The notes: generated by a model not told the origin, from the letters alone. Positions 1,952-36,939 are shown, counted from the first letter of the stretch. The stretch: DNA of 64,000 bases from Anaerolineaceae bacterium (GCA_003569365.1 BGOS01000003.1:64315-128314), one strand, 5' to 3'. Numbers and translations: made by a program.

Positions 1952-3196
1952 CTACGGGTAAATTTTCTTCGGGTTGGAGTCCGCCGCAGCACCGGGATTC
2001 CAGCTTGCAGGATCCGTGCTCATCATTTCGTAGACTGCAATCTTGGGATCGCTGCAGTCACCGGTGGGTGTGCAGGTGAGGGTTCCCGTGATGCCTTGGA
2101 AGCCCTTTGTGGCAAACATTGCGTCACGCAAAGCCTGACGCCCGATGTGCAGGGTCCCGTCCGCATCCTTCACGCCCACCTTTTCCATGGCCGCAAAAAT
2201 GATGCTGGCGGCGTCGTAGCCGTGGGCATGAAAAGCAGAGAGCGGTTTCTCGCCGTACTTCTTCTGGTGCTTGTCCAAAAAGGCGGCATAGCCTGATGCG
2301 AAGGCCGAGAAATCCGGGCTGGAGTGGTACATGCCCATCGCAGCAGCGCCCGCTGCTTTCAGGAAGTCGGGCGAGAAAATACCATCGGCCCCCATCAGCT
2401 TGACGGTCTCGAGGCCCGGCACTTCTTTGGATTGTGAGGTCACAAATCCACCGGCCGCTGTGAAGATTGGTAAATAGATCAGCTCGGGTTTCGCGGCAGC
2501 GATGTTAGTGAGCACCGGGCGCATATCAGTATCGGTCGGCCCCACGGCTTCTTGGGCAACGATTTCACCGCCCAATTCCACAAAGCGTTTGGCGAATACT
2601 GCTTGCAGGCTCTGGGCGTACAAGCTGCCATCATGAATGGTGGCTGCGCGCTTTATGCCTTTGCCATTGTAGGCAAACTCAGCCGCTACTGCACCCTGAA
2701 TTTCGTCATTGTGAGCGGTGCGCATGTAGCCCGCCACGTGCTTGGCTGCGGAGGTGAGATCTGGTGCGGTGTTGGAGGCCGAAATAAGCGTCATACCCGC
2801 GTCCGTCAAGATCGGGGCAGCTACGCGCGCTTCGCTCGAGCAGGACGTGCCAACGACTGCGACGATCGTTTTGTCTGCAGCCAGTTTCTGGGCTGCCGCC
2901 TGGCCGCCTTCCGGATTGCAGCCAGTGTCTTCGCCGGTCAACTCAATCGGATGGTCGAACAACATTTTCTTGTCATCAATGGCAATTTCGACACCGCGCA
3001 TTGAATCGATGCCCAGCGTGGCATCGGGCCCGACCACCACCATTGCATAGGCAATATGCACTGGCTTGCCCGGCGCAATGTCCACACAGCCGATCTTGTC
3101 CGCGCATACAAACGGGGCTGCGGCCGGTGTGCACGCGGCAAGCAGTACTCCCAAACTTCCCATACCAATCAGTAACGAAAACCTTAGCTTGAACAT
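1952..3196 (-). CDS. branched-chain amino acid-type ABC substrate-binding lipoprotein, paralog 2
   Basis: 414-aa ORF, gap-free colinear with the 351..1595 product (roughly three quarters identical by eye). Lipobox LLAACTP. Confidence 0.9.
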   Translation of the reverse strand: MFKLRFSLLIGMGSLGVLLAACTPAAAPFVCADKIGCVDIAPGKPVHIAYAMVVVGPDATLGIDSMRGVEIAIDDKKMLFDHPIELTGEDTGCNPEGGQAAAQKLAADKTIVAVVGTSCSSEARVAAPILTDAGMTLISASNTAPDLTSAAKHVAGYMRTAHNDEIQGAVAAEFAYNGKGIKRAATIHDGSLYAQSLQAVFAKRFVELGGEIVAQEAVGPTDTDMRPVLTNIAAAKPELIYLPIFTAAGGFVTSQSKEVPGLETVKLMGADGIFSPDFLKAAGAAAMGMYHSSPDFSAFASGYAAFLDKHQKKYGEKPLSAFHAHGYDAASIIFAAMEKVGVKDADGTLHIGRQALRDAMFATKGFQGITGTLTCTPTGDCSDPKIAVYEMMSTDPASWNPGAAADSNPKKIYP

Positions 3197-6750: not shown

Positions 6751-8982
6751 GTGCACACTATGAATATTTTGCAATCTGATAAATCAATGCGCATCATTGT
6801 TGATGGCACGCCAGTTGAGTTTGCTGCCGGCGACAACGTGCTGGGCGCCATGTTGCGGGCTGGACTGCGCCCGACAAGCGGCGGTTGCCTGTGTCTTGGC
6901 GGCGATTGCCCGCATTGCCTGGCTACGGTGGATGGGATTGCCTATGTGCGCACATGCCAGACCGCAGCCCGCCCGGGGCTGATTGTGCAGAGTTTCCCGG
7001 ATGACGGCTATCCGCCGCTGCCGGCTGGCTCCACGCGTGAGCCGGCGGTGACCGCGCGCAATATTCATTGCGATGTGGTGGTGATTGGGCAGGGCGCGGC
7101 CGGGCGCGCTGCGGCTGCGGCTGCCCGCCAAGCGGGCAAACAAGTTGTCACGCTGGATGCTAGTGCCGGTGAGGAGGTGATTGGCATTTATGCGGGTCCA
7201 CTGGTCGTCGCGCGCACTGCCGCCGGCATGCTCCACGCTCACCCGCGGGTCGAAATAATTGTGGCCACAGGTGCAGCTGAGATTCAACCGGTGGCGCCCG
7301 GCAACGACTTGGCCGGAATACTGACTGCGCGCGCGGCGGAGGCGTTGGTGGCTGCCGGTGTCGACCTCGGCCGGGTTGTGGCGGTTGGTACTCCGCCGGC
7401 TGGCATAAAGGTTGAGCAGGCCGAGGGCGAGCTTTTGCGGTTTGAGGGCACGCTGCGCGTTGCGGGCGTGGTGATGCGCGATCGCAACGGCAGCGAGCGG
7501 CGCTATGCGTGTGACACTGCGGTGGTGGGGCTGGGCATGCAGCCGCGGGATGCGCTGCTGCGCATGGGTCAGGGTCTCGCGGTGCGGGCGGTGGGTGATG
7601 CTGCCCGTGCGTCAGACATGCCGCCGTGTCCGTTGGCGGGCACGGTGTGTGCGTGTTCGGGTGTGACGGTGGCTGATTTAGAGTCCGCGTGGCAGCGCGG
7701 GTTTCATGAGCTGGAGCTTGTAAAGCGTTCTACTTTGGCGGGCACGGGCACGTGCCAGGGCATGGCTTGCATGCCGCATGTGCGCAGCTTCCTGGCGGCG
7801 CGCGGTGGCAGTTTGCAGCCGCCTTTTACTGCGCGGCCGGTGACGCGCCAATTGACGATGGGCGAAGCATCTGCTGGATCGCATCATCAGGCCGTGCCGC
7901 GCACCGCGCTTGACGGCGAGCACCGGCGGCTGGGCGCCCAGATGGATCGCATCGGGGGCTGGTGGCGGCCGTGGCACTACGGCAATCCGCTGCGGGAGTA
8001 CTGGGCCGTGCGCGAAGCTGTTTCGATTGGCGATGTAAGCACGCTCGGAAAGATGCAGGTGTCCGGGCCGGACGCGCTTGAGTTGTTGGAGCGCCTGTAT
8101 CCAACGCGTGTGAAGTCGATTGCACCCGGCACCGCGCGTTATGTTTTGATGCTCAATGACCGTGGCTATATTTTTGACGATGGACTGATTTGCTGCGATG
8201 GCGCAAACCGCTACTCGCTTACCTTTACCAGTGGCGGTGCGTCTTTTGCGGAGCTGTGGGTGCGTGACTGGGCCGAAAGCTGGAAGCTGGATGTGCGCAT
8301 CCTAAACCAGACAATGGCGCTTGGTGCCATCAACGTCACCGGGCCGCTGGCCAAGGAATTGCTTGCGCGCGCCGGCCTGCCCAACGCGCCAAAATATATG
8401 CAGCTGGCAAGCGCGCTGGTTGCGGGCGTGCAGTGCCGGGTGCATCGCTTAAGTTTTACGGGCGAGCTTTCCTACGAACTGCATCATCCCGCCGAGCATT
8501 CTGTAGTGCTGTGGCGGCAGCTGCTGGAACTGGGCAAAGATCTGGGCATCAAGCCGCATGGCTTGCAGACGCTGCTGCAACTGCGGCTTGAGAAGGGGCA
8601 CATCATTGTCGGGCAGGATTCAGATTTTGATTCGACGGCGCGGCGCGTGGATATGGAGTGGGCGGTTAAATTGGACAAGCCGGAGTTTGTGGGAAGGCAG
8701 GCAGTGGTGCGCACCAACAAGGTTTCGCTTGATCGCCAGCTAACCGGCTTTGAGATGGAAGGTGTGGCGCCGATTGAGGGCTCAAGCATTCATTTTGGCT
8801 CTGAGTACGCGGGTTACGTTACATCTAGTTTTACTTCGCCGGTGTTGGGCAAGGCGGTCATGCTTGGCTGGCTGCGGTTGTTTGATGGCAAACTGCCGGA
8901 TGCTGTTTTGATCGATGGACGCAGCGCGCAGCGTGTGCCCGTGCCTTTTTATGACAAGGCTGGCGGCCGGGCCCGTGTTTGA
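6751..8982 (+). CDS. soxA: sarcosine-oxidase alpha-subunit-family protein, short form with N-terminal Cys cluster and BFD-like Cys cluster
   Basis: 743 aa. N-terminus has GGCLCLGGDCPHCLATVDG...RTC, followed by Rossmann DVVVIGQGAAG and a second cluster CACSGVTVADL...GTGTCQGMAC. The C-terminal half resembles the aminomethyltransferase (GcvT) fold (GKMQVSGPDA, FTGELSYELH). Confidence 0.85.
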   Translation: MHTMNILQSDKSMRIIVDGTPVEFAAGDNVLGAMLRAGLRPTSGGCLCLGGDCPHCLATVDGIAYVRTCQTAARPGLIVQSFPDDGYPPLPAGSTREPAVTARNIHCDVVVIGQGAAGRAAAAAARQAGKQVVTLDASAGEEVIGIYAGPLVVARTAAGMLHAHPRVEIIVATGAAEIQPVAPGNDLAGILTARAAEALVAAGVDLGRVVAVGTPPAGIKVEQAEGELLRFEGTLRVAGVVMRDRNGSERRYACDTAVVGLGMQPRDALLRMGQGLAVRAVGDAARASDMPPCPLAGTVCACSGVTVADLESAWQRGFHELELVKRSTLAGTGTCQGMACMPHVRSFLAARGGSLQPPFTARPVTRQLTMGEASAGSHHQAVPRTALDGEHRRLGAQMDRIGGWWRPWHYGNPLREYWAVREAVSIGDVSTLGKMQVSGPDALELLERLYPTRVKSIAPGTARYVLMLNDRGYIFDDGLICCDGANRYSLTFTSGGASFAELWVRDWAESWKLDVRILNQTMALGAINVTGPLAKELLARAGLPNAPKYMQLASALVAGVQCRVHRLSFTGELSYELHHPAEHSVVLWRQLLELGKDLGIKPHGLQTLLQLRLEKGHIIVGQDSDFDSTARRVDMEWAVKLDKPEFVGRQAVVRTNKVSLDRQLTGFEMEGVAPIEGSSIHFGSEYAGYVTSSFTSPVLGKAVMLGWLRLFDGKLPDAVLIDGRSAQRVPVPFYDKAGGRARV

Positions 8983-24485: not shown

Positions 24486-25598
24486 TTACGATACGACGTC
24501 CGGGAAGGGCGCAAGGCCAAGCAGGCGCCGGCGAATGTAGCGGCCCACCACCAGCAGCGAGCCGAGCACGGGGACCACAATCAGCGCTCCCAGCACACCC
24601 TGAACCAGCGCCGCAATGATTACCACGGTGAAAATAATCCCTTCTGGCAGCAGCATTTGGCGGCCCAGCACGTAGGGGCGCAGCCAGATACTTTTGATGT
24701 TGATTAGCACGGTATAAATGCCGAGCACCAGCAACCCAAAAGCTGTGCGCGATATGTCCAGATAAATTGAGCCTTTCATGAGCGCAACCACCACGGCGAT
24801 GACGGCGGTGGCGGCGGGACCCAGCTCCGGAATAATGCTGAGCACGCCGGCAAGAATGCCGATGGTGAGCCCGCCCGGCAGCCCAATGGCCATGTAGATG
24901 ACGCTAAAAACCACTCCGACAATCAGCATCAAGATTAAATTGCCCCACAGGTAGGTGTGCCATACGCGGCGCACGTCAATATACAAGCGGTGCATCTCAG
25001 CATGCATGTACACTGGCGTCAGACCAATCATCCAATTGCGCAGGCGCGGCCAGCCGGACAGAAGGTAGTAAGTGGTGACCACAATCATCACGGTCCAGGC
25101 AAGGTTGGCGGATGTGGCCTGCAGCAATTCAATCACGGTGGCGGAGCTTGGCAGCAGCGAGCTGAGCGAGAGTTCCGCGAGGCCCGGAAACATTTCGCCG
25201 AGGCGCATTGTGCCACTGGGGGTACGGATGGGTTGCAGCACAGCTGTGCGCAGTTCATCAAATGAGTACTGCACATCAGTGTAGATTTGCTGTGACTGGG
25301 TGATGAGTGTGGGTGCCAGCAGCGCTGGCAAGAACAGGAAGATTGCCAGGCTGGTGAAGTACACGAGCACCACCAGCGTTTGGCGCGACAAGCGGGTTGC
25401 CTTGCCCAGCCCGTCTACGATGGTGCTCAGCACGTAAGCGACCAAGCCGGAAATAATGAGTGGCTTGACCGCTGCCTGCGCGTAATATAAAACTGCCCAG
25501 CCGCACAGCACCAAAGTGATGAGAGCGATGTAGCGAAACGCCTCAGTCCAATGTTGGCTTTCGTCGGCGTCAGGTGCGGGGTCGGGCTGCGGATTCAC
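24486..25598 (-). CDS. AI-2E family transporter (PerM/UPF0118)
   Basis: 370 aa, about 8 TM helices, with a typical AI-2E C-terminal half (IPELGPAATAVIAVVVAL). Confidence 0.8.
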   Translation of the reverse strand: MNPQPDPAPDADESQHWTEAFRYIALITLVLCGWAVLYYAQAAVKPLIISGLVAYVLSTIVDGLGKATRLSRQTLVVLVYFTSLAIFLFLPALLAPTLITQSQQIYTDVQYSFDELRTAVLQPIRTPSGTMRLGEMFPGLAELSLSSLLPSSATVIELLQATSANLAWTVMIVVTTYYLLSGWPRLRNWMIGLTPVYMHAEMHRLYIDVRRVWHTYLWGNLILMLIVGVVFSVIYMAIGLPGGLTIGILAGVLSIIPELGPAATAVIAVVVALMKGSIYLDISRTAFGLLVLGIYTVLINIKSIWLRPYVLGRQMLLPEGIIFTVVIIAALVQGVLGALIVVPVLGSLLVVGRYIRRRLLGLAPFPDVVS

Positions 25599-25699
25599 TT
25601 CGGGTCCGTTGCGAAAGATTGTAACATCCGGAACGCCGCCGGGAGTGGGTTACAATAATTCAGGGGCGCATCCGGAGCGCCGGTTGCCGGAATTTTCCA

Positions 25700-27004
25700 A
25701 TGACTGACGCAGCTGCCCGCAAGCGCATTACCGCCTCCCTGTTCTTGTCGCAGGCGTTCTATTCGTCTGCTTTCATTGGTGTTTTTGCGGTGATGCCCAT
25801 CCTGGCCACGCGCTTCGGCGGTTCTCCGGCACAGGCCGGGCTGCCGATCACGCTGACCATGGCAGGTCGGGCGCTGGCATCATATCCACTGGGCTGGGCG
25901 ATGGACCGCTTTGGGCGGCGCACCGCGCTTACGATTGGGTTCACGGGCGGAGTGCTGAGCGCCGTGCTTGGCGTGCTGGCAGTTTGGGGCAGCAACTTGT
26001 GGCTGCTGCTTGCGAGCGCAGCGCTGATGGGCCTGGCGCGCAGCGCCGCTGAGCAGGCGCGCTTTGTTGCCGCGGAAGTCCATCCGCCCGCCAAGCGGGA
26101 CAACATTATTGGCCTGATAGTTTTCGCGGGCACTTTTGGCGCAGTCGGTGGGCGCGGCGCTGCGCAGTTTGGCAGCTGGCTGCGGGTTTCGTTTGGGCTG
26201 AATGAATTTGCGGTGGTGTACTTGCTCGCCATTGGCTTGCTGGCGATAGCGCTGGTGTGCAATCAGCTACTGCTGCGGCCAGATCCGCTTACGCTGCGTT
26301 GGAAGGCAGAGGCGTCCCCCGAAGTCGGTTCAGGCGCCGTTATAAAAGTTGCCGGTGAAGAGTCTGGTGTCACAACGGCCGGGGGCGCACCTGCCCTGCC
26401 GCGCGGCCGGCCATTAGCTGAAATTTTTTCTGCGCCGGATATGCAGATTGCGGTAACGGCGATTGCCATTGGGCAGCTGGTGATGACCATGCTGATGGTG
26501 ATCACGCCGCTGCATATGAACATTTGCGGCTACGATACGCTCAATGTTTCTACGGCATTGGCAGTGCATACGCTTGGCATGTTTGCGCTTTCGCCCCTCA
26601 CCGGCTGGATGAGCCGGCAGTTTGGGCGCGTGCCGGTGATTTGCGCGGGCGCAGTGGTGCTGATGGCGTGCGGCTTGCTGGCACCGTATGCGGTGGCTTT
26701 GTCGGCGCTGTACTTTGGCATGTTTGCGCTGGGGTACGGCTGGAACCTGTGCCATGTGGCCGGGTCCGCATTGCTGGCGCAGATGGTGCCGGAGGGCGAA
26801 GGCGGCCGGGTGCAGGGCGCTGCGGAATTTATTACGTCAATTACGGCCGGCATCGGCAGCCTGAGCTCGGGTGCGCTGTTTGCGTGGCGTGGCTTCAGTG
26901 GGCCGGGCGCTGCGGGATTGATGCTTTCCGGCTTGATACTTGTGGCAGTAGCGGTGGCTGCGAACACCAACCGGCGCATGGCCGCGGTAGTGGCAAGTGC
27001 TTAA
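25700..27004 (+). CDS. MFS transporter
   Basis: 434 aa, 12 predicted TM segments, with an MFS loop motif (GWAMDRFGRR). Confidence 0.85.
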   Translation: MTDAAARKRITASLFLSQAFYSSAFIGVFAVMPILATRFGGSPAQAGLPITLTMAGRALASYPLGWAMDRFGRRTALTIGFTGGVLSAVLGVLAVWGSNLWLLLASAALMGLARSAAEQARFVAAEVHPPAKRDNIIGLIVFAGTFGAVGGRGAAQFGSWLRVSFGLNEFAVVYLLAIGLLAIALVCNQLLLRPDPLTLRWKAEASPEVGSGAVIKVAGEESGVTTAGGAPALPRGRPLAEIFSAPDMQIAVTAIAIGQLVMTMLMVITPLHMNICGYDTLNVSTALAVHTLGMFALSPLTGWMSRQFGRVPVICAGAVVLMACGLLAPYAVALSALYFGMFALGYGWNLCHVAGSALLAQMVPEGEGGRVQGAAEFITSITAGIGSLSSGALFAWRGFSGPGAAGLMLSGLILVAVAVAANTNRRMAAVVASA

Positions 27005-28172
27005 ACAGCGCACGGCGTTCGTGGTGCCGGATCTTGCGCAGTGGGAAGTGCATGCGGAGCGCGGCTTTCTTCCGGATCCAGACCCGCTGTTGGAGTTGCC
27101 GCCAGAGTATGCGGCGTGGGAACGGATCAACCGCGAGCTGCCCGGCCTGCTGGCTGCGGGCAGCGGCGCCATGCTGCGCAGCGTAGGCCGGCTGCCCGTG
27201 CTGGAACTGGCCGGCTTGCAGACTGCGCCGATGCACAACCGTGCCATGGTGCTGTTGAGCGTGCTGGCGCATGCATTTGTGTGGGCGGACCCGCAACAGC
27301 CGCGCAAGCAGCTGCCGGCGGCAATTGCGCTGCCGCTTGGCACACTGGCCGCGCAACTTGGCCGCCCGCCGATTTGCACGCATGCGACGACGGTCTTGCA
27401 CAACTGGCGCCGGCTGGACCCAAGTGGCCCGATTGAGCTCGGCAACGTTGCCACGCTGGCCGGTTTCTTTGGCGGCTTGGATGAGGCGTGGTTCTTTTTG
27501 GTTACGCTGGCGGTGGAGGCGCGCGGTGCGCCGGCAGTTGTTTACAGCTTGCAGCTGCAAGCTGCCGTTTTGGCGTTGGATGTGGAAGCTGCAACCGAAG
27601 TGCTGGAGCGCATGCACGCCACGCTGCTGGCCATGATGGAGGCGCTGCGGCGCATGCACGAGCGCTGTGCGCCGTTTGTATTCTTCAACCGCCTGCGTCC
27701 GTTTCTGGCCGGCTGGAAGGACGAGCCGCTTTTGCCGGATGGGTTGATTTACGAAGGCATGGGTGTGGAACCACGGCAATACTTTGGCGCCAGCGCTGCG
27801 CAGAGCGCATTGTTCCCGCTGTTTGATGAAGTGCTGGGCATCACGCATGATCCCGGGCACGCCGGCGGCTACCTGGGCCAGATGCGCAGCTACATGCTGG
27901 GCGGGCATCGGCGCCTGTTGGAGTACGTGGCGGCCGGGCCGTCTGTGCGCCACTGGCTGCAGCGCCTGCCGGAGGGTGGTGCGCTGCGCGCTGCATACAA
28001 CTTGTGCGTCGCCGAGTTGGGTGTGCTGCGCACACTGCACATGCGCATTGCGGCTGAGTACATTGTGGCGCAGGCGCGTGCGGGCACTGAGGCGCGCGGT
28101 ACTGGCAGCACGACCGTGATACCCTTTCTAAAATCCGTGCGTGATGAGACCGCGGCCAGCGCCGCGGTGTGA
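26997..28172 (+). CDS. indoleamine 2,3-dioxygenase (IDO) family heme dioxygenase homolog
   Basis: 391 aa, colinear with eukaryotic IDO as recalled. Matching blocks are FFNRLRPFLAGWKDEPLLPDGLIYEG, GASAAQSALFPLFDEVLGI, MRSYMLGGHRRLL and the proximal-His context LRTLHMRIAAEYI. The start overlaps the MFS stop by 8 nt. Confidence 0.9.
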   Translation: MLKQRTAFVVPDLAQWEVHAERGFLPDPDPLLELPPEYAAWERINRELPGLLAAGSGAMLRSVGRLPVLELAGLQTAPMHNRAMVLLSVLAHAFVWADPQQPRKQLPAAIALPLGTLAAQLGRPPICTHATTVLHNWRRLDPSGPIELGNVATLAGFFGGLDEAWFFLVTLAVEARGAPAVVYSLQLQAAVLALDVEAATEVLERMHATLLAMMEALRRMHERCAPFVFFNRLRPFLAGWKDEPLLPDGLIYEGMGVEPRQYFGASAAQSALFPLFDEVLGITHDPGHAGGYLGQMRSYMLGGHRRLLEYVAAGPSVRHWLQRLPEGGALRAAYNLCVAELGVLRTLHMRIAAEYIVAQARAGTEARGTGSTTVIPFLKSVRDETAASAAV

Positions 28173-28225
28173 CCTGCGCGCTGCGTGTGCAAGCGCGCAG
28201 TTTTGGCAAATAAAAGGATTCAGCC

Positions 28226-28588
28226 ATGACAGCAATTCTCGCCGAGCAAAAGTGCGTTGCGTGCCGCGCAGACGCGCCGCGGGCAACCAGTGCCGAACAA
28301 GCGGCTCACATGCAGCAGCTGCCGGACTGGCAGGTGCTCGAGCGTGCAAGCGTGCCGCAGTTGGAGCGCATGTTTAAGTTTGCCAACTTTGCGCAGAGCC
28401 TGGAATTTACCAACCGCGTGGGCGCACTGGCGGAGGAGCACGGGCATCATCCTGCGCTGCTTACCGAGTGGGGCCGCGTGACGGTGACATGGTGGACGCA
28501 CAAGATCGGCGGGCTGCACAACAATGATTTTGTGATGGCCGCCAAGACGGACCTTCTGCATTCCGGTGCCGGGCAGCCACGCACCTAA
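28226..28588 (+). CDS. pterin-4-alpha-carbinolamine dehydratase (PCD/PhhB family)
   Basis: 120 aa. Contains [23 protein letters not shown], the PCD signature. Confidence 0.9.
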
Positions 28589-28609
28589 ATATCTTCAACG
28601 GAGCAAGCA

Positions 28610-29527
28610 ATGACAGCACGCGTTTCTGAAATTCTGAGCTGGTATCGCAGCGACAACCCGGGCACGCAAACCAACCTGGCGCGCATGCTCAACCACGGGC
28701 GGCTGGGTGGCACCGGGCGCATGGTGATCCTGCCGGTGGACCAGGGCTTTGAGCACGGGCCGGCGCGCAGCTTTGCGCCAAACCCCGCCGGGTACGACCC
28801 GCACTTTCACTTTCAGCTGGCGATTGACGCGGGCTGCAATGCCTACGCTGCGCCACTGGGATTTTTGGAGGCGGGCGCTGCGGATTTTGCCGGGCAGATC
28901 CCGTTGATTCTGAAACTGAATAACCATGATGTGCTGCATTCCGAGACCGACCCGCTGGGGGCGCAGACCGGCAGCGTGGAAGACGCGCTGCGCCTGGGAT
29001 GCGTGGCCATTGGCTACACCATTTATCCCGGCACGGTGGAGCGGCGCATGCTTTACGAGCAGCTGCGCGAGCTTGTGCTGGAGGCGAAGGCGGTGGGCCT
29101 GGCGGTTGTGGTGTGGGCGTACCCGCGCGGCGGCGAGCTTTCCAAGGAAGGCGAGTCCGCGCTGGATGTATGCGCCTACGCTGCGCAGCTGGCTGCGCAG
29201 CTGGGTGCGCACATCATCAAAGTGAAGCTGCCTTCGGCGCACATTGAGCAAGCCGAGGCGATCAAGATTTACGAGAAGCATAAAATCCCCAAGGCTACGC
29301 TCACCGAGCGCGTGCAGCATGTGATGCAAGGCGCGTTCAACGGCCGGCGCATTGTGATCTTCTCGGGCGGCGCCAAGAGCGACGATGAGACGGTGCTGGC
29401 AGAGGCGCGTGCGATCCGTGATGGCGGCGGGTTTGGCTCCATCATCGGGCGCAATAGTTTTCAGCGTGCCAAGCCGGATGCGCTCAAGCTGCTGGCGGCC
29501 ATCATGGAAATTTATCGCAGCGGTTAG
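28610..29527 (+). CDS. class I fructose-bisphosphate aldolase family protein (DhnA/FbaB archaeal-type, DeoC/LacD superfamily)
   Basis: 305 aa. Has ILPVDQGFEHGP and the Schiff-base lysine context AHIIKVKLP. Confidence 0.8.
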   Translation: MTARVSEILSWYRSDNPGTQTNLARMLNHGRLGGTGRMVILPVDQGFEHGPARSFAPNPAGYDPHFHFQLAIDAGCNAYAAPLGFLEAGAADFAGQIPLILKLNNHDVLHSETDPLGAQTGSVEDALRLGCVAIGYTIYPGTVERRMLYEQLRELVLEAKAVGLAVVVWAYPRGGELSKEGESALDVCAYAAQLAAQLGAHIIKVKLPSAHIEQAEAIKIYEKHKIPKATLTERVQHVMQGAFNGRRIVIFSGGAKSDDETVLAEARAIRDGGGFGSIIGRNSFQRAKPDALKLLAAIMEIYRSG

Positions 29528-29566
29528 TGCTTGCGGCGGAGCCGATGCTATACTGTTTGGCACAAT

Positions 29567-30370
29567 ATGGTGGAAATTCCACATGATTACCACTTGCACT
29601 CCAATTTTTCCTGCGACTGCGAGGCGCCCATGGCGGAGATGTGCGCTGCGGCTGTGGCACGCGGAATTCCGGAGATCGGGTTTACCGAGCACTACGACCA
29701 GCATCCCGGCGACAGCTGCCGCAATTGGCTGCGGGTTCCAGAGTGGGCAGCCAGCCTCGAGAAGTGCCGCGCTGAGTTTGCCGGCCGGCTGATCATTCGC
29801 GCGGGCATTGAAATTGGCGAGCCCCACATTTTTACTAAAGAGGCGCAGGCAGTGCTGGCGCAGCATCCCTTTGATTATGTTTTGGGAAGCCTGCACTGGG
29901 TGGGCGGTGACTTTGTTTTTGACGATGAGTTCTACAAGCGCCCGGCGGCACAGGCGTTCGGTGCATTTTTTGGCGAGCTGGCGGTGATGACGCTTGCGGG
30001 CGGGTTTGATGTGTTGAGCCATTTTGATCTGCCGGCGCGCATGAGCCGGCCGTTTTATGGCGCCTATGATCCCGTGCCATTTGCGGAACCAATCCGCGCC
30101 GTGCTGGCTAACTGTGTGGCGCATGGCATTGCGCTTGACATCAATACGGCTGCGCTGCGGCGCGGTACACCCACGCTGACACCGGGCGAGACGATCCTGC
30201 GCTGGTACCGCGAGCTGGGCGGCGAGCGCATCACACTGGGCTCGGATTCACACCGGCCGGCTAATTTGGGTGCAAACCTTCAGGATGCACTTGCGGCGGC
30301 GCGCGCAGCGGGCTTCCGGTACGTAACGCAGTACCAGCAGCGCGTGGCGCACATGGTGCCGCTGCCCTAA
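29567..30370 (+). CDS. PHP-domain histidinol-phosphatase (HisJ) family protein
   Basis: Starts MVEIPHDYHLHSNFSCDC (PHP motif I). Later motifs include GFTEH, GSLHW and GSDSH. The tracked ORF begins at TTG 29531. Confidence 0.8.
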   Translation: MVEIPHDYHLHSNFSCDCEAPMAEMCAAAVARGIPEIGFTEHYDQHPGDSCRNWLRVPEWAASLEKCRAEFAGRLIIRAGIEIGEPHIFTKEAQAVLAQHPFDYVLGSLHWVGGDFVFDDEFYKRPAAQAFGAFFGELAVMTLAGGFDVLSHFDLPARMSRPFYGAYDPVPFAEPIRAVLANCVAHGIALDINTAALRRGTPTLTPGETILRWYRELGGERITLGSDSHRPANLGANLQDALAAARAAGFRYVTQYQQRVAHMVPLP

Positions 30371-30388
30371 CGCGATTGCGGGGGCGTG

Positions 30389-31369
30389 ATGAAGCAATCC
30401 CAGCCCGTTGGGCGCGCCCGCAAAACTTTCCAAATGAACCCCTACACTAAAAAGCTGGACATCAATCGTTGCAGTGAAGCGGAGCTGCTAGCGCTCGATG
30501 GCGTGGGTGCGGAGCTGGCTGCTGCGATCATTGCGCGCCGGCCCTATGGCTCGGTGCTGGGGGTGCGGTCAATTCCCGGGATGACTGCAAGAACGTACCA
30601 GGCATTGAAGGCTTGCTTGCATGTGGAGCACCGGCCGCCGGCTGAAAAGCTGAATTTGAATACGGCGAGCCTGCGCGAGCTGCTGCTTGTGCCGGAGATG
30701 ACGGCCGAGGCGGCCGAACGGATCTTGATGCTGCGTCCGTTTGCAGGCGTGCTGGACTTGAAGTGGGTGCCGGAAGTTTCCAGCGAACAGCTTGCAGTGT
30801 TTGTGGACTGGTTTGTGGCGGGCGATAGTGCGGGCAATCCCGGGGCGCCAGAGAGCGCTGCGGTGGGCGGCGCGGATGTTGCCGGGGATGGCGCCAATGA
30901 TGGCGAAGAGCGGGGCGATAGCGATCCGACTTTGGTGATTGACCGTGAGAAGGACGGTGGCGTGGGCGAAAGTGCGGATAGCGGCGATCCGGATGCTACT
31001 GCCACCGCCGGCAGCGATGTTGATGATTTTGCCGATGGTTCGGCTGATGCGGATGCGGACGAGGCTGAGAGCGACGCGGATGTTGCCGGTGAATTTGAGA
31101 CTGGTGTGGTGGATCTGCCGGCGGGCTTGTTGCCGTTGCCGGCCGTTGATTGGGCGGCGGGAACGGGCCTGGGGTTGGATGACGATGCCATAACGGTTGA
31201 TGTGCCGGGCGGACGTTCGGCGGCACCATCGGCTGACCGGTTGCCGGATGATATGGCGATTTTGAGCGGCCTGAGAATGCGATGCTCGGTTATCCTGCGC
31301 GGGGCGGCAATCCGGGAGCGGGCCAGCGCGTATTGCAATGGCTGGGCTCGCCGCAGGTGCGTGGGTTAG
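30389..31369 (+). CDS. tandem helix-hairpin-helix (ComEA-like) protein with long acidic low-complexity tail
   Basis: Two HhH units (EAELLALDGVGAELAAAII; LRELLLVPEMTAEAAERIL) are followed by about 150 aa rich in D/G/A/E. Confidence 0.65.
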   Translation: MKQSQPVGRARKTFQMNPYTKKLDINRCSEAELLALDGVGAELAAAIIARRPYGSVLGVRSIPGMTARTYQALKACLHVEHRPPAEKLNLNTASLRELLLVPEMTAEAAERILMLRPFAGVLDLKWVPEVSSEQLAVFVDWFVAGDSAGNPGAPESAAVGGADVAGDGANDGEERGDSDPTLVIDREKDGGVGESADSGDPDATATAGSDVDDFADGSADADADEAESDADVAGEFETGVVDLPAGLLPLPAVDWAAGTGLGLDDDAITVDVPGGRSAAPSADRLPDDMAILSGLRMRCSVILRGAAIRERASAYCNGWARRRCVG

Positions 31370-32325
31370 TGGTTAGCGCATTGGTAATCGGGGCGTTTGC
31401 CGGCGGGTTGTATTTTGTGTTTAGGCGGGAGGCGCCGGCTGTGGTTGTGGCAGTTGTTCCCACCGCCACAGCTATGCCGCCAACAGCGACAACCGTGCCA
31501 ACGCTGGTGCCAACTCCCACCGCTGAGCCAACAATTGAGCCGACACCCAGCGGGCGGACTTACCGGCTGCGTCTTTCACATTACTGGCCGGCACTGGGCG
31601 GTACCAACTGCCATGCAGCGGAGTGGGTGGATGGCGAATGCAAAACGCAGCTGGCTGGTAAACCGTGGCAACAGTGGGCGGGCATCGGGGCGGCCTGCCC
31701 CAAGGAAATCCCGACCGGCACCGAAATCAGTATTCCGGATCTGGGGCGCAGTTTTATCTGTGTGGACAAGGGCGGGGCGATTGAGGCAGTTCCAGACGGG
31801 TCCTTTTTTATTGACTTGATCCAAAAGGATAATTTGTACCTCCCGAACGCTGAAGTGATCAAGGACGAGTACTGTCCGCAGACTTGCTTTGTGGTGGATG
31901 GGTTGGTGATACCGAAGGCAAACACTGGCATACCGGGGAGTACCGCTGCCGTTGCCAAGGCGGATTGGTTTACGGTGCGCTTGGGGAATTGGTGGGAGGA
32001 CGAGTGGGGCGCGGGCTGCAAGCCGGGCAAGCCGCTGCTGGGCTGCAATTACAAGATAAACGGGCAGCCGGTGCAGAGCTGGATCGGGGTTGCCGCAAAG
32101 TGCCCGTCAGATTTTGAGCTGGGCTCGATGGTTTATGTGGCGGTGCTGGAGGCGCAGGTAACTTGCCTGGTGGTGGGCGAGAAGCGCGCTTTGGACGGCT
32201 CAGGTTTTATGATCATGCTGCAGCCGGATCCATTGTTTTTGCCGGCGGCGCAGACAGTGCGCGATGGAGACTGCCCGAGCAGCTGCTTTGTGAGCCAGGC
32301 AAAGAAGCTGGTGCCGAACCCCTAG
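31357..32325 (+). CDS. membrane-anchored protein with two tandem 3D-domain-like (MltA/RlpA DPBB-type) repeats; start uncertain (31282, 31357 or 31369)
   Basis: A TM anchor (LVVSALVIGAFAGGLYFVF) and a Pro/Thr linker precede repeat 1, whose GIGAACPKEIPTGTEISIPDLGRSFICVDKGGAI...FIDL resembles the 3D domain. A degenerate second copy follows. Confidence 0.5.
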   Translation: MRGLVVSALVIGAFAGGLYFVFRREAPAVVVAVVPTATAMPPTATTVPTLVPTPTAEPTIEPTPSGRTYRLRLSHYWPALGGTNCHAAEWVDGECKTQLAGKPWQQWAGIGAACPKEIPTGTEISIPDLGRSFICVDKGGAIEAVPDGSFFIDLIQKDNLYLPNAEVIKDEYCPQTCFVVDGLVIPKANTGIPGSTAAVAKADWFTVRLGNWWEDEWGAGCKPGKPLLGCNYKINGQPVQSWIGVAAKCPSDFELGSMVYVAVLEAQVTCLVVGEKRALDGSGFMIMLQPDPLFLPAAQTVRDGDCPSSCFVSQAKKLVPNP

Positions 32326-32401
32326 GTGTGGCTGGCGCCAATTGCAGTGTGCGCCGCATCACTTTTGCCTGCGTGCGCGGCGGACAGTACCGTAAGCGCA
32401 A

Positions 32402-32474
32402 AGCCACCTTCGGGAGTCGAACCCGAAACCTATCACTTACGAAGCGATTGCTCTGCCAATTGAGCTAAGGTGGC
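32402..32474 (-). tRNA. tRNA-Thr (anticodon CGU)
   Basis: Folded by hand: acceptor GCCACCT/AGGTGGC, D arm GCTC-AATTGGCA-GAGC, anticodon arm ATCGC-TTCGTAA-GTGAT, T arm TCGGG-TTCGACT-CCCGA. 73 nt; CCA not encoded. Confidence 0.9.
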
Positions 32475-32573
32475 GAAGAGCGCATTATACACAGGGGCTG
32501 TGCAAGCGGAGTTGGCAGGGGCTCAAATCTGCCACTCAAGAGCATGCACCGTCCAGCGTTAGCGCGGTGATTA

Positions 32574-32723
32574 TTAAGGGCGGGCTTTTTGTGCCGTCGC
32601 AGTAAAGGTAATTGGCAAATGCGTTGGGCCTGTATTGCCACTGTCGGGCAAGTATGCAGCTTCGGGGCTCACGCGCATTTCGGGCAGGCGCGCGGCCACG
32701 GTAACAACAGCACCCTCGTCATC
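32574..32723 (-). pseudogene. orphan 3'-terminal fragment of a cytochrome P450 gene
   Basis: Minus-strand reading between TAG (32726..32724) and TAA (32576..32574) gives DDEGAVVTVAARLPEMRVSPEAAYLPDSGNTGPTHLPITFTATAQKARP. The central 28 residues equal the C-terminus of the P450 at 35202..36414. Confidence 0.6.
32614..32698. repeat. 85-bp direct repeat, copy 1 (83/85 identical to 35251..35335)
   Basis: Aligned by eye: GGCAAATG[C/A]GTTGGGCCTGTATTGCC[A/G]CTGTCGGGCAAGTATGCAGCTTCGGGGCTCACGCGCATTTCGGGCAGGCGCGCGGCCA. Also visible as the shared peptide in tracked ORFs 32589..32792 and 35256..35459. Confidence 0.9.
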
Positions 32724-32753
32724 CTAGGTTGTGCGCTCGTGAGTGGTGCAAGT

Positions 32754-34733
32754 TCACGGAATTCCATAGAGCGCATATTCCCGCGTTTTTGAAAGAAGCG
32801 GCAGTTGTATCTTCCAATCCGGGTAAGTGATCACACCTGTAAATCTGAATTCCAGCGCAAGTTGTTGCCATTGTTTGGCAGTTCTATCTTCCCAGGCAAT
32901 TTTTCCGGCATCCGGCAGGAGTCCACCTGACCTTGCGTTTTGCACTTCTGTTGATGGGTTAAGAATGTCAGTATCATATACTGTTAATAAAATTTGGTTT
33001 AGATTTTTTGCGACTGATGCCCTGTAGGGGAACACATCGAGTCGTCCTCCGTCGATAAGTACCGCTTGCCTTGTTCTTAGTTGTACATAGTGGAGGTCGG
33101 AGGAGGTGACTAGGAGAGTGGGAATTTGAGTGGCGGCAAGTTCTGCGTCTAAGACCCAGGGATGAATTTTGGAAAGATTTTGGTCCTTCCATCCTCCAGC
33201 TATATTAATTGTTAACGCTATTGCCGTGAGACAAAACATGGCTATGTAGTCCGCTTGCGGCCATTTTCGAAATAGGTTTACGGTCAACTTCCAGACTTTC
33301 GTCGTTATACGGCTGCCAGTTTTCCAGTAGAAGCTGAGGATTGTGGCGGCTGAAAGTAGGTATAGGATTGATGCAGTTCGTAGTCTGCCTATTGAGTAGT
33401 AGCTGGAAAGTGCAAGCGTGAATTTCTTTCCGATCAGAATTACGGTTCCGAAAAGCAGCAGCGACAGGGCGGTGTTTCTAGCAAGTACTTTAGTGGGTAT
33501 GGAGTTGGGGTTACTTTCGATAACTAGAAAAATTATTCCGGCACCTAACGACGCAATCGTGGCCGGAACGGTCAAGTTAGGTGCTAGGAAGTAAAGCATG
33601 CAGAGCGTAAGTAGCAGCCATAGCCGGGAAGCAATGCTAGCGGAACTGCGCGCAAGCAGCCCCACACACAGAATGGGCAATAACAAGATCGAAAGGTTCA
33701 TCCACCGCATGGGCATCAGAATGAGAATGCTTATGGGCAGGATTTCCGGGGGCAGCCAAGATAACGCAATTCCTATAATCCCGCACGCAGAGGCTATAAA
33801 ACTCAGCCAGAGTAGGTTATTTATGGGCACTGCTTGTGATGCTTTGCAGCTCTTTAATAGATAGATCGTGGCGAGTAGATTTGCAACCAAATAGGTTGTC
33901 CCCACTGTCAATAGTGGGACCGCTCGTCTATGTGCATCCCAATTCTTGATGAACGCGAGAATGTATTCAGTGCCAGATGCCGCATTTGGCACAATCGCTG
34001 CAGCTGAAACTTGTTGTTGTACCAGGTAACTGGCTGTAGCTAATGCGGTACCGATAATGAACCAACGGTAAATTGTCTTCTGCGGAAATCCAATTTCGCG
34101 CAGTTTGGTGAGGCAATAACCGGAAATTATTATCCAACCCAGAACGCCATAAGAACTATGGATCGAAGGCAGGATTCCTAACAGAAATGCGCCCCATGCG
34201 TTTTTGCGCAGGCTTAGAAACGCGATAGAAAGTAGTAGGCACGAAAGACCGATAATGCCGTGTGTGTGCGGGTAACCTAGGAGCCAGATGGGATATACAG
34301 CGCCAAAATCTGCCGCCCGAGTTGCGTAGATAAATACAGGTGTTATGAGAGACATCCATATGTTTTCTGTGCATGCCAGCGCGCAAAGACTAATTGCCTG
34401 AAACGAGACCATCCCCAAAAGTCCACTGACGAATATGGAGACCAAGACTTCGGACAGCCCAAGACGCAGAAGGATTGCGCAGAATTGTACTAGTATTGAC
34501 CATATATTTGCTTCTATAAGAGCATAGTTACTGTGCGGAGTTGGATGTATGACTGCGCCTACGATTTGCGCATACTCGACTGCTTCCTGCCAAGTGGGAT
34601 AAATTAGCGCAGCCAAACAAAATCCAATTAGGCCACTTATTGCCAGGGACATGTATATAGTTCTATTCGTGAGATTATGAACGAGAGACGGATCTTGTTT
34701 ATTGAATATATTTTGGTTACTGGAGCTGTTCAT
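32754..34733 (-). CDS. large polytopic integral membrane protein of unknown function (GT-C-like architecture: many TM helices plus C-terminal soluble domain)
   Basis: 659-aa ORF in a clearly AT-richer segment. At least 12 hydrophobic segments are followed by an approximately 150-aa hydrophilic C-terminus. No motif I can name. Confidence 0.65.
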   Translation of the reverse strand: MNSSSNQNIFNKQDPSLVHNLTNRTIYMSLAISGLIGFCLAALIYPTWQEAVEYAQIVGAVIHPTPHSNYALIEANIWSILVQFCAILLRLGLSEVLVSIFVSGLLGMVSFQAISLCALACTENIWMSLITPVFIYATRAADFGAVYPIWLLGYPHTHGIIGLSCLLLSIAFLSLRKNAWGAFLLGILPSIHSSYGVLGWIIISGYCLTKLREIGFPQKTIYRWFIIGTALATASYLVQQQVSAAAIVPNAASGTEYILAFIKNWDAHRRAVPLLTVGTTYLVANLLATIYLLKSCKASQAVPINNLLWLSFIASACGIIGIALSWLPPEILPISILILMPMRWMNLSILLLPILCVGLLARSSASIASRLWLLLTLCMLYFLAPNLTVPATIASLGAGIIFLVIESNPNSIPTKVLARNTALSLLLFGTVILIGKKFTLALSSYYSIGRLRTASILYLLSAATILSFYWKTGSRITTKVWKLTVNLFRKWPQADYIAMFCLTAIALTINIAGGWKDQNLSKIHPWVLDAELAATQIPTLLVTSSDLHYVQLRTRQAVLIDGGRLDVFPYRASVAKNLNQILLTVYDTDILNPSTEVQNARSGGLLPDAGKIAWEDRTAKQWQQLALEFRFTGVITYPDWKIQLPLLSKTREYALYGIP

Positions 34734-35201
34734 GGGTTGAGGTCACTAAAAGTGGAGCGCGGAGTATATTTCCCGGAGTTTATTTAGGTGGCAGTGACTG
34801 TTGTGAGATTGCCTTCGCAGCGTGGTTTTAAACACTTGTGGATCTCGCGTCAAAAGCTATGGTAATGTTTATGATTGAACGAGTCAATTGTTGGCGCTTT
34901 TTGGTCGCTGCTAATCCGGTAGGCTCCAGGAGTACACGTGTCTTTTTCACCCACTACTTTCGTGGTATGCGCGGCGGACGATTGGAGCATTCGGGTGCGC
35001 GCGTCTTGGGTAGGCTGAATATTCTCGGCTGAGAGGATGCTTTGTTGCCGGGGTTTATGAAGAACCTTGTTTCGTTTGCGGGTACCAGGTCTTTGCGTTA
35101 CCTGAACTTGCAACGCCAGCCGCGGATACAGTGAGCGAACGAGTGGTGGATGGGTGCCATGGGTGTAGAGCCATAAACTGGACGCTGTTTAAGTGTCGAG
35201 G

Positions 35202-36414
35202 TTACTTGGTCGGTATCTGGCTCCGGGATTTCGACGGCTTAAACGATAGTGGCAAATGAGTTGGGCCTGTATTGCCGCTGTCGGGCAAGTATGCAGCTTC
35301 GGGGCTCACGCGCATTTCGGGCAGGCGCGCGGCCAGAGCTTTGAAGGCTTCCGTCATATCCAGGCGTGCCACCAAGTGGCCGATACAGTGATGCATGCCG
35401 CCGCCGAAACCAAAATGAGGCGGTCGTTCTTTCTCAATATCAAATTCAGCCGCTTCTAATTTGCGCGGATCGCTGCCGGCTGGAATGGTGAGCAGGTGCA
35501 CGGTGGTTCCCTTTTCAATTGTGAGCTCGCGGTACTGCATATCCTCTGATGCCTCACGCGACACCCAGGTGATGGTTGGGTTGACGCGCATTACCTCCTC
35601 CACTGCCTGGCGAGCCAGCGCCGGGTTGGCGCCGAGCTTTTGCCATTGGCCTGGGTGGTCCGCAAAGGTTTGCATGCCCAATCCAATTTGATTGCGCGTT
35701 GTGTCAAATCCGGCGAAGACTACAATCGACACAAGTGAGAGCAGCTCGGCTTCTGTAATCGGTGCCATCGAGGCTGGCTCTTACCAGCGTGCCAACAAAG
35801 TCATCCGCATGTGTGCCGCGCCTCGCATCAATCAGCGCTTTTGAGATGTCGAGAATGCCCTGCAGTCCATGCTCGATGGCCGCTAACTTGTCTTTTATCG
35901 TCACAGAGAAGACATAGCCCAGCTCGGTCGCCAGGTCGGCAAGCAGGCGCCAATTGTGCTTTGGTATTCCCAGCAGCCCGGTAATCACGCGCGCTGAAAA
36001 TGGCTCCGCAAATTCGCGCATGAACTCGCAACTGCCGCGTTCGCAGAAGCCGTCAATCAGCTCGTTGGCAAGCTCGGCGAAATATCCCGTCAGCGGTTCG
36101 ATGACGCGCGAGGAGAAAGCCGGGTTGGCTAATTTGCGCAGGCGCAGATGATCCTGGCCTTCAACGCTTAGCAACATTGTCTGCCACCAGTCAGCCAGCA
36201 AGCCGCTGGTAATGCCGTAATGTGCCGGCCAGCGCCGCGTGCCTTGGTAAAGACGCCGGTCTTTCAACAACGCATTTACATCCGCATATCTGAGGACGGC
36301 GATGCTAAAGGGGGTTTTAGCGTACCAGTGGTTTTCGCGGGCCTGCATGACTGCGGCCGAGCGGATTGAAAATCCGGCCTGATTGAAATCTAGAAAAGCG
36401 AGGTCTGGAGACAT
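35202..36414 (-). pseudogene. cytochrome P450, split by a 1-nt frameshift near 35768-35781 (pseudogene or sequence error)
   Basis: The N-terminal ORF 35704..36414 and C-terminal ORF 35202..35768 overlap in different frames. The I-helix (FAGFDTTRNQ), EXXR (EEVMRV) and heme loop (FGFGGGMHHCIGHLVA) are all in the C-terminal piece. Confidence 0.85.
35251..35335. repeat. 85-bp direct repeat, copy 2 (inside the 3' end of the P450 gene)
   Basis: See copy 1. The two copies are 2637 bp apart. Confidence 0.9.
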
Positions 36415-36678
36415 GCGTTGGTTTTCTTTTTTAGTGGGTTATGCGGATGCGAAACCGCGATGGGTAGTTACGTTGGACGGTGGATAGAAATTCACGCCGT
36501 GTGCGGCCGCAGGTTCGGTTTGTTAATTTACCGTTGGTCAAAAGGCACGCGGTGAAGTTTGTGTAGCGTGAATTCCGGCAAACGGGAGAGCTCATTGAAT
36601 GTCAGCTGGCCCGGTGTGGGCAAACCGGATGCGCAATATTATAATTGGGGGTTGGTAAATTAGATTGGGAAGTGAATT

Positions 36679-36939
36679 ATGAGCAACGCAGCAGAAATCA
36701 CAATGTATGGGCATGATCGGTGCTCAGATTGCCTCCGGTCCGAGCGCCTTCTGAAGGCACTGAATGTTACGTACACCAAAGTGGATGTGCATGCAGACCT
36801 GGCGGCTGCAGATAAAGTAATTGAAATCAGTGGTGGCAATCTGTCAGTGCCGCTGATTTGCTTTCCTGATGGGACGCACCTAACGGAGCCGTCTGACCCG
36901 GTTCTGAAAGCCAAACTGGTTTCCCTGCATATTATTTAG
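36679..36939 (+). CDS. glutaredoxin-fold protein, mycoredoxin (Mrx1)/NrdH-like
   Basis: 86 aa. Has the CxxC motif CSDC in ITMYGHDRCSDCLR. The C-terminal part GGNLSVPLICFPDGTHLTEPSDPVLKAKLV is colinear with actinobacterial mycoredoxin-1 as I recall it. Confidence 0.75.
   Translation: MSNAAEITMYGHDRCSDCLRSERLLKALNVTYTKVDVHADLAAADKVIEISGGNLSVPLICFPDGTHLTEPSDPVLKAKLVSLHII

Follow-up and report, generated by a model that had tools for sequence, protein, structure and literature searches.

A foreign single-gene insert between 86-bp direct repeats at the 3′ end of a cytochrome P450 gene, present and absent in different strains of the lake bacterium CL500-11

The DNA described here is a stretch of 64,000 nt (BGOS01000003.1:64315-128314 of GCA_003569365.1, ‘Anaerolineaceae bacterium’; the whole stretch is called the window hereafter), in which the 3′ end of a cytochrome P450 gene adjoins an insert that carries a single gene, the cargo, between two copies of an 86-bp direct repeat. 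The host is Chloroflexota CL500-11 of Lake Biwa, and bin BD1, a draft genome recovered by PacBio-CCS metagenomics of that lake, has been reported as CL500-11 (Chloroflexi, Anaerolineae; PMC6329791). In ascending coordinates, and with all genes on the minus strand, the locus begins with a tRNA-Thr gene of anticodon CGT (32402..32474; ARAGORN, and Rfam tRNA at 65.3 bits). It is followed by tail 1 (32574..32612, minus), which translates into 12 P450 codons plus a stop (ITFTATAQKARP*) and is orphaned together with copy 1 of the repeat (32613..32698, minus), an attR-like P450 3′ fragment encoding (V)AARLPEMRVSPEAAYLPDSGNTGPTHLP. Then come X, a 55-nt piece of the insert that separates copy 1 from the stop codon of the cargo (32699..32753, minus); the cargo gene (32754..34733, minus), an open reading frame (ORF) of 659 aa for a multi-pass membrane protein with a C-terminal soluble domain; and a non-coding spacer of 468 nt (34734..35201, no strand assigned) with a G+C content (GC) of 0.51 and weak promoter-like hexamers only. 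Tail 2 (35202..35249, minus), 48 nt in frame and encoding a substitute P450 end, leads into copy 2 of the repeat (35250..35335, minus), which is attL-like and contiguous with the P450 body. The P450 gene itself, the insertion target (35202..36414, minus; Pfam PF00067), appears in the window as two ORFs (35704-36414 and 35202-35768).

A repeat search of the window returned a direct repeat pair of 96 nt with 94% identity (32603-32698 and 35240-35335), whose near-perfect core comprises 86 nt (32613-32698 versus 35250-35335, 84 of 86 positions identical); the copies start 2,637 bp apart, and 2,551 bp lies between them. Chance origin of the pair is excluded because of its length and identity. The two mismatches between the copies, at 32622 and 32640, are single-nucleotide polymorphisms (SNPs) that both segregate in strains with an empty site too. 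The homology is lost abruptly at 32698|32699, on the side of X, whereas towards the tails it fades gradually, with 8 matches between tail 1 and tail 2 in the adjoining 11 nt and the P450 motif LP[IL]xF retained. Read on the minus strand, orphan copy 1 gives ...THLP-ITFTATAQKARP, and the P450 at copy 2 now ends ...THLP-LSFKPSKSRSQIPTK. An earlier note on this DNA, made from the sequence alone, had reported most of this layout: its translations of both peptide tails, its single gene plus about 470 bp of non-coding DNA and its tRNA-Thr some 140 bp outside copy 1 (138 nt by our count) all stand, and its 85-bp repeats with 83 identities are real, the block being one base longer. Two of its details need correction, in that the abrupt loss of similarity claimed for both sides of the repeats applies to the X side only, and the in-frame TAG that closes the copy-1 orphan (32726..32724) precedes the first fully repeated codon by nine codons instead of two.

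The insert differs sharply from its surroundings in composition. For 32699-35250 a GC of 0.476 was determined, against 0.601±0.026 in 226 other 2.55-kb windows (z = -4.8), and a tetranucleotide distance of 0.48 against 0.19±0.03 elsewhere, about 9 standard deviations off; the G+C at third codon positions is 0.465 in the cargo and 0.62-0.78 in the neighbouring genes. The composition of the insert is foreign, and the lower G+C that the earlier note had read from a few lines of sequence is borne out by these windowed values.

Both the empty and the filled form of the site were retrieved from other assemblies (Logan, ENA and NCBI contigs of related loci, labelled L001 onward). Six Logan contigs from six other sequencing runs (L036-L041), ~99% identical to the window, bear a single 86-bp copy without the insert. 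They align to the window over 24562-32698 and then from 35250 on, with an overlap of exactly one 86-bp copy; in L040 and L041, whose contigs begin inside the tRNA gene, the left alignment covers 32423-32698 only. Base by base, their order is tail 1, core and P450 body, with the identical tRNA-Thr beyond the tail and so directly downstream of the P450, which is the empty-site arrangement that the earlier note had proposed to look for in relatives (P450, then the 32574-32612 tail and tRNA-Thr). Their P450 is intact with 401 aa and ends PITFTATAQKARP in five of the six. The sixth, L036, has a variant P450 tail (…TATAQETHP) and shows 17 clustered differences between the tRNA and the P450 end (~7900-8060 of the contig, matching window 32500-32613); the gene end itself is variable in the population.

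The filled junctions, including that between X and copy 1, recur identically in three further assemblies, namely L034 (GCA_003569065.1), L043, an ENA k141 contig crossing both repeats, and L029, a Logan contig of ~2.65 kb that ends inside both repeats. The cargo cluster at 90% comprises 51 member sequences, mostly Logan contigs of 2.63-2.68 kb, which is the length expected if assembly stops in both repeats, as in L029; being k=31 contigs, they cannot tell the integrated from a circular form. Between strains the cargo alleles differ by 1-12 residues and the insert is 99.0-99.8% identical. The insertion is real and polymorphic in the population, and assembly collapse, which the earlier note had named as a possible refutation, is excluded because the filled junctions recur in three independent assemblies.

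The two P450 tails bear on the direction of change. Twenty-five P450 orthologues end LPITFTPTKK, LPITFTATKR or similar (LPITFT[PA]TK), like the orphan tail and unlike the present one. The match of their C-termini to it, and of the P450 end in the empty-site contigs, shows that the gene originally ended in the orphan tail and that the present tail came in with the insert as a replacement; the empty state is ancestral, since the orthologues share the orphan tail and the insert composition is foreign. Tail 2 (LSFKPSKSRSQIPTK*, beginning LPLSF…) keeps the pattern LP[IL]xF.P[ST], which is found in further database P450s, and no database P450 has it as a native end. Its P450-like sequence and the 8 of 11 matching nucleotides imply that the incoming DNA carried a diverged P450 3′ end beside 86 nt identical, or nearly so, to the host. 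The empty sites and the orphan tail support integration into the gene’s 3′ end with supply of a replacement end, as the earlier note had proposed; its view of copy 2 as the true P450 3′ end holds in that copy 2 is contiguous with the gene body, but judged by the orthologues it is the orphan tail that is ancestral.

The cargo is the only insert ORF longer than 90 aa, and no Pfam family matched it. An AlphaFold2 model of the protein (pLDDT 66, pTM 0.70) was compared with the PDB by Foldseek, and its best 11 matches were all glycosyltransferase-C (GT-C) enzymes (AglB, DPY19, STT3, AftA and ALG9), these matches being weak (probability 0.77-0.97, E 0.01-0.13, TM 0.26-0.39 among the best 11); two more GT-C proteins, AftD and EmbA-EmbB, stand lower among the PDB matches. 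Homologues share 27-43% identity with it and number about 1,570 representatives (E ≤ 1e-3, out of 1.84 billion); their genes are usually found within operons or clusters for polysaccharide biosynthesis, adjoining genes for Polysacc_synt_3, GT4, GT2, DegT aminotransferase, epimerase and radical-SAM proteins. With moderate confidence, we regard the cargo as probably a membrane glycan-assembly enzyme, a candidate GT-C-like glycosyltransferase, and its family, which has no Pfam model, as a candidate new GT-C-like family. The invariant residues of the family include W265, D266, H268 and R269, and E53 is nearly invariant. The NCBI protein GBL36420.1 (EMGBD1_01070, from a 257.5-kb contig of ‘Anaerolineaceae bacterium’) is contained, residue for residue, in the window cargo protein; record look-ups for the exact window cargo, for the P450 C-terminal ORF and for GBL36420.1 found nothing.

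Searches for mobility functions were negative throughout. Pfam revealed no integrase or transposase, whether in the insert, in the scanned large ORFs of the 64-kb window or among the genes called on the related contigs, which cover ~24.6-52.8 kb of the window; no terminal inverted repeats were found at the insert ends by the repeat search, in agreement with the earlier note. The spacer contains no gene remnant, its small ORFs having no Pfam match at E ≤ 1, and no repeats of note, and neither spacer nor core shows arm-type repeats or dyad symmetry. Rfam returned no family besides the tRNA, IMG/VR no match to the cargo alignment or to the core in its copy-2 version, and GenBank phages and PLSDB plasmids none to the insert. 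A scan of JGI metagenomes gave only cargo homologues of 27-43% identity, and neither at the nucleotide level nor in translation does the insert resemble the DNA that surrounds the P450 orthologues of Nanopelagicaceae and Rhodoluna.

Several familiar kinds of element were considered and rejected on these results. A transposon or insertion sequence would be without transposase and terminal inverted repeats here, and the duplication is 86 bp long. For an integron cassette, the repeats lack an attC-like single-stranded structure, folding no better than shuffled sequences (z +0.9 to -1.0), and the window holds no IntI-like gene. A tRNA-targeted island does not fit either, as the insert lies on the 5′ side of tRNA-Thr, which is neither duplicated nor altered. 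The blank results in IMG/VR, GenBank phages and PLSDB disposed of a phage or plasmid origin, and the Pfam-negative small ORFs and absence of meaningful repeats disposed of a degraded integrase in the spacer.

The reading that we favour, with about an even chance of being right, is a Campbell-type crossover of a foreign non-autonomous cassette within the 86-bp homology, carried out by host homologous recombination. A foreign cassette of 2,551 bp (tail 2, the 468-nt spacer, cargo and the 55-nt X) would have entered the chromosome of a CL500-11 cell from a circular DNA bearing a P450-3′-end-like segment that matched the resident 86 bp. One reciprocal crossover in these 86 bp, near the P450 3′ end, would duplicate them, leave the original last 12 codons orphaned beside tRNA-Thr and give the P450 an in-frame, family-like tail. 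The topology of the product is that of a reciprocal crossover between a circle X-core-tail 2 and a chromosomal body-core-tail 1. In the three filled strains, the SNPs of the repeat copies are compatible with an exchange inside a 58-nt perfectly identical block, the element-near parts of the copies being constant and the chromosome-near parts following local haplotypes. The cassette encodes no recombinase, and host homologous recombination on short homology would be the most likely enzyme. Subsequently the filled allele may spread between cells by ordinary recombination of the flanks and the cassette may be lost by recombination between the two repeats, which together would explain why filled and empty alleles coexist. 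We infer the circular intermediate, the enzyme responsible and the reversibility. In E. coli, single-crossover integration of circles with truncated homology has produced target duplications of 109-950 bp (PMC3240628).

Host homologous recombination explains the footprint as well as an element with a dedicated recombinase does, and several points weigh against it. A length of 86 bp is short for an efficient RecA-dependent crossover, and a gene-end mimic that preserves the target ORF is a classical signature of integrase-driven elements. A recombinase may have acted in trans, since the host sequence inspected amounts to 64 kb. The origin of a circle with 86 nt of host-identical DNA beside a diverged tail is not accounted for, and the databases searched yielded no circular form, no donor genome and no cargo relative above 43% identity.

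A second repeat-bracketed member of the cargo family came from an unrelated metagenome contig, L069 (SDBV01046991.1), on which a 596-aa cargo homologue of ~34% identity lies between two unrelated genes. It is bracketed by direct repeats of 77 nt, 94% identical (971-1047 and 3059-3135), which consist of local intergenic DNA. The composition breaks sharply there as well, with a GC of 0.415 and a GC skew of +0.16 in the insert against a GC of 0.47-0.50 and a skew of -0.26 to -0.35 in the flanking genes. The inserts of L069 and the window have no non-coding motif or element ends in common and their repeats differ, which speaks against both having relied on one dedicated att site and recombinase. 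In related loci totalling 647 kb, no more than three repeat pairs of this kind were found, two of which bracket the cargo family exactly. A wider proposal, which we put forward tentatively and regard as doubtful, would be an integrase-free, homology-guided and reversible movement of single envelope-glycan genes in streamlined plankton nearly devoid of mobile-element machinery. In such movement a circle of ~2.1-2.6 kb would comprise one gene plus a host mimic of ~80 bp serving as a homing arm for host recombination, the mimic being here a gene end with a putatively functional substitute tail and in L069 an intergenic, promoter-side stretch.

A possible, if less probable, agent of the crossover is a site-specific tyrosine or serine integrase encoded outside the insert, for which the 86-bp repeats would be true attL and attR; the insert would then be the decayed remnant of a larger island, or a hitchhiker resembling a cis-mobilizable element (CIME) and served in trans. 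Such enzymes classically leave direct repeats at a gene 3′ end and, with them, a family-like replacement tail in frame; in addition, the junctions are identical in three strains. The CIME class, in which att sites are kept and recombination genes lost, is documented (PMC6323972), and single cells of CL500-11 hold an integrase-bearing element at another site (PMC12143481). Against this, no recombinase is present in the insert or in the surrounding 64 kb scanned, spacer and core are without the arm-type repeats or dyad symmetry looked for above, none of the retrieved contigs contains a larger element at the P450 site, and the L069 repeat is wholly different with no element ends in common.

We consider it unlikely that the insert was captured as a linear fragment, whether through homology-facilitated illegitimate recombination or during break repair. 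One end of the fragment would have paired homeologously with the P450 3′ end while X was attached by an illegitimate joint, made either upstream of this anchor or in a staggered break that was then filled in; both ways would yield the 86-bp duplication. This would suit the repeat boundaries, of which one decays and the other is abrupt both in this insert and in L069, and the setting, as the P450 and its flanks form a mosaic hotspot with patches of 77-88% identity among otherwise ~99%-identical cells; the DNA could have come from a lineage in which this gene stands behind a native P450. It demands two rare joints, however, and no such donor arrangement was found in the databases searched; moreover, the E. 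coli study expected target deletion from such events and attributed its duplications to circle integration (PMC3240628).

It is highly improbable that the filled state is ancestral, with the orphan as the relic of a second P450 copy and the empty alleles as deletions between the repeats: such a deletion between 86-bp direct repeats would be easy and the junctions alone cannot polarise empty versus filled, but the insert is foreign by its GC (0.476 versus 0.60), the empty-site P450 tail is common to all orthologues, and cargo alleles only 1-12 residues apart in inserts of near-identical sequence speak against it. The chance that the repeat is an assembly artefact, a collapse or chimera, is negligible, for although the window apparently stems from a PacBio-CCS metagenome bin with indel errors, four independent assemblies, the window included, share the same junctions and one k=141 contig spans both repeats.

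Other features of the locus and its host are as follows. The split of the P450 in the window is due to a 2-nt gap near 35760-35763 (GTAAT-CGG-TGCC versus GTAATGCGGCTGCC in the closest of ten related contigs), which is private to the window; L034 has a different indel, near 35842, and the gene is unbroken in the Logan and ENA contigs. The gap is probably a PacBio-CCS indel error and not the mark of a pseudogene, though it may be a strain-private mutation. Similarly, a helix-hairpin-helix protein at 30386-32325 (plus strand) is represented in the window by two overlapping ORFs (327 and 347 aa) and in L036-L039 by one gene of 645 aa, suggesting that the window assembly contains a further indel.

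The locus is a recombination hotspot. In the central P450 (35400-36000; L030, L031, L033, L040 and L041), allele classes of similar GC are 77-85% identical in nucleotides in patches, in cells whose flanks have an identity of at least 99%; these diverged alleles stand no closer to actinobacterial genes and represent either a mosaic or a balanced polymorphism. L043 is 99.6-99.8% identical to the window in the insert and at least 99.6% in the tRNA, and ~85% in the 600 nt beyond the tRNA (window 31800-32400, the 3′ end of the helix-hairpin-helix gene plus intergenic DNA), the switch being sharp at the tRNA 3′ end, 32402. The nearest relatives of the P450, at 70-78% amino acid identity, belong to freshwater Actinobacteria (Ca. 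Planktophila, Nanopelagicaceae and Rhodoluna; GC 0.38-0.54; L001-L026), with which the locus has no neighbour genes in common, and the stretch from the P450 to glutaredoxin (35202-36939) has a GC of 0.52-0.57 against 0.60 for the window. The sequences suggest that the P450 was acquired in an older inter-phylum transfer between co-occurring lake plankton.

The LigA and GT4 proteins of the window recur unchanged on many ENA, NCBI and Logan contigs; a scan of species-representative genomes turned up no CL500-11 genome. The Logan assemblies numbered DRR583xxx probably correspond to the single-cell genomes from Lake Biwa described in PMC12143481. Elsewhere in the window, two adjacent genes for periplasmic binding proteins of 414 aa (Peripla_BP_6), probably paralogues, stand in tandem (351-1595 and 1952-3196, minus strand).

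CL500-11 is among the most abundant bacteria of deep lakes and has never been cultured, and cell-to-cell differences in surface glycans are thought to decide whether a virus can infect a given cell. At this locus the gain and loss of a probable glycan gene appear as a clearly resolved polymorphism, with exact junctions, a known ancestral state, and filled and empty alleles in probable single-cell assemblies; the locus is usable as a marker of variation of this kind. It is also a test case for the gain of foreign genes by genomes with almost no mobile-element genes. Should homology-guided insertion without a recombinase prove true, flexible genes would have a simple and possibly general means of entry; should an integrase have acted in trans, the insert would be a routine hitchhiker element.

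Among known systems, prophage e14 and phage 21 in the E. coli icd gene integrate in a gene 3′ end and carry a substitute gene end. The locus resembles such 3′-end integrative elements in its repeats taken from the target gene end, its orphaned original end at the far junction, its in-frame family-like replacement and the occurrence of empty sites in the same population. It differs from them in having no integrase, excisionase or other mobility gene, in its size of 2.55 kb with one metabolic or envelope gene, and in that no phage or plasmid similarity was found.

CIMEs keep their flanking att sites but no longer have genes for integration and transfer (ICEberg 2.0, PMC6323972). The att-like flanking repeats, the failure to find recombination or transfer genes and the content of cargo only recall this class, although here the repeats are only putatively substrates of a recombinase. 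To our knowledge, there is no parental integrative and conjugative or integrative and mobilizable element with specificity for a P450 site.

With the Campbell integrants of E. coli lacZ (PMC3240628) the insert has in common that it is bracketed by a duplicated homologous segment, present once in the parental allele, and that no dedicated recombinase is needed; the duplication is 86-96 bp here versus the 109-950 bp published. That system, moreover, is a laboratory one with conjugated plasmids, whereas the circular donor here is hypothetical and its arm ends in a diverged gene tail.

Hypervariable glycosyltransferase loci have been described in abundant aquatic bacteria (PMC9426551), and like such flexible glycan islands the locus has a strain-variable foreign gene, probably for the envelope glycan, in an abundant oligotroph, by a tRNA gene, near GT4 and amid mosaic flanks. 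Unlike them, it involves one gene and not the swap of a cluster, and an 86-bp duplication inside a P450 instead of replacement between conserved flanks. The locus is a non-autonomous integrated islet of a known kind and a clear but ordinary gene gain; what is unusual is confined to the reading without a recombinase and to the finding of another member of the cargo family between repeats.

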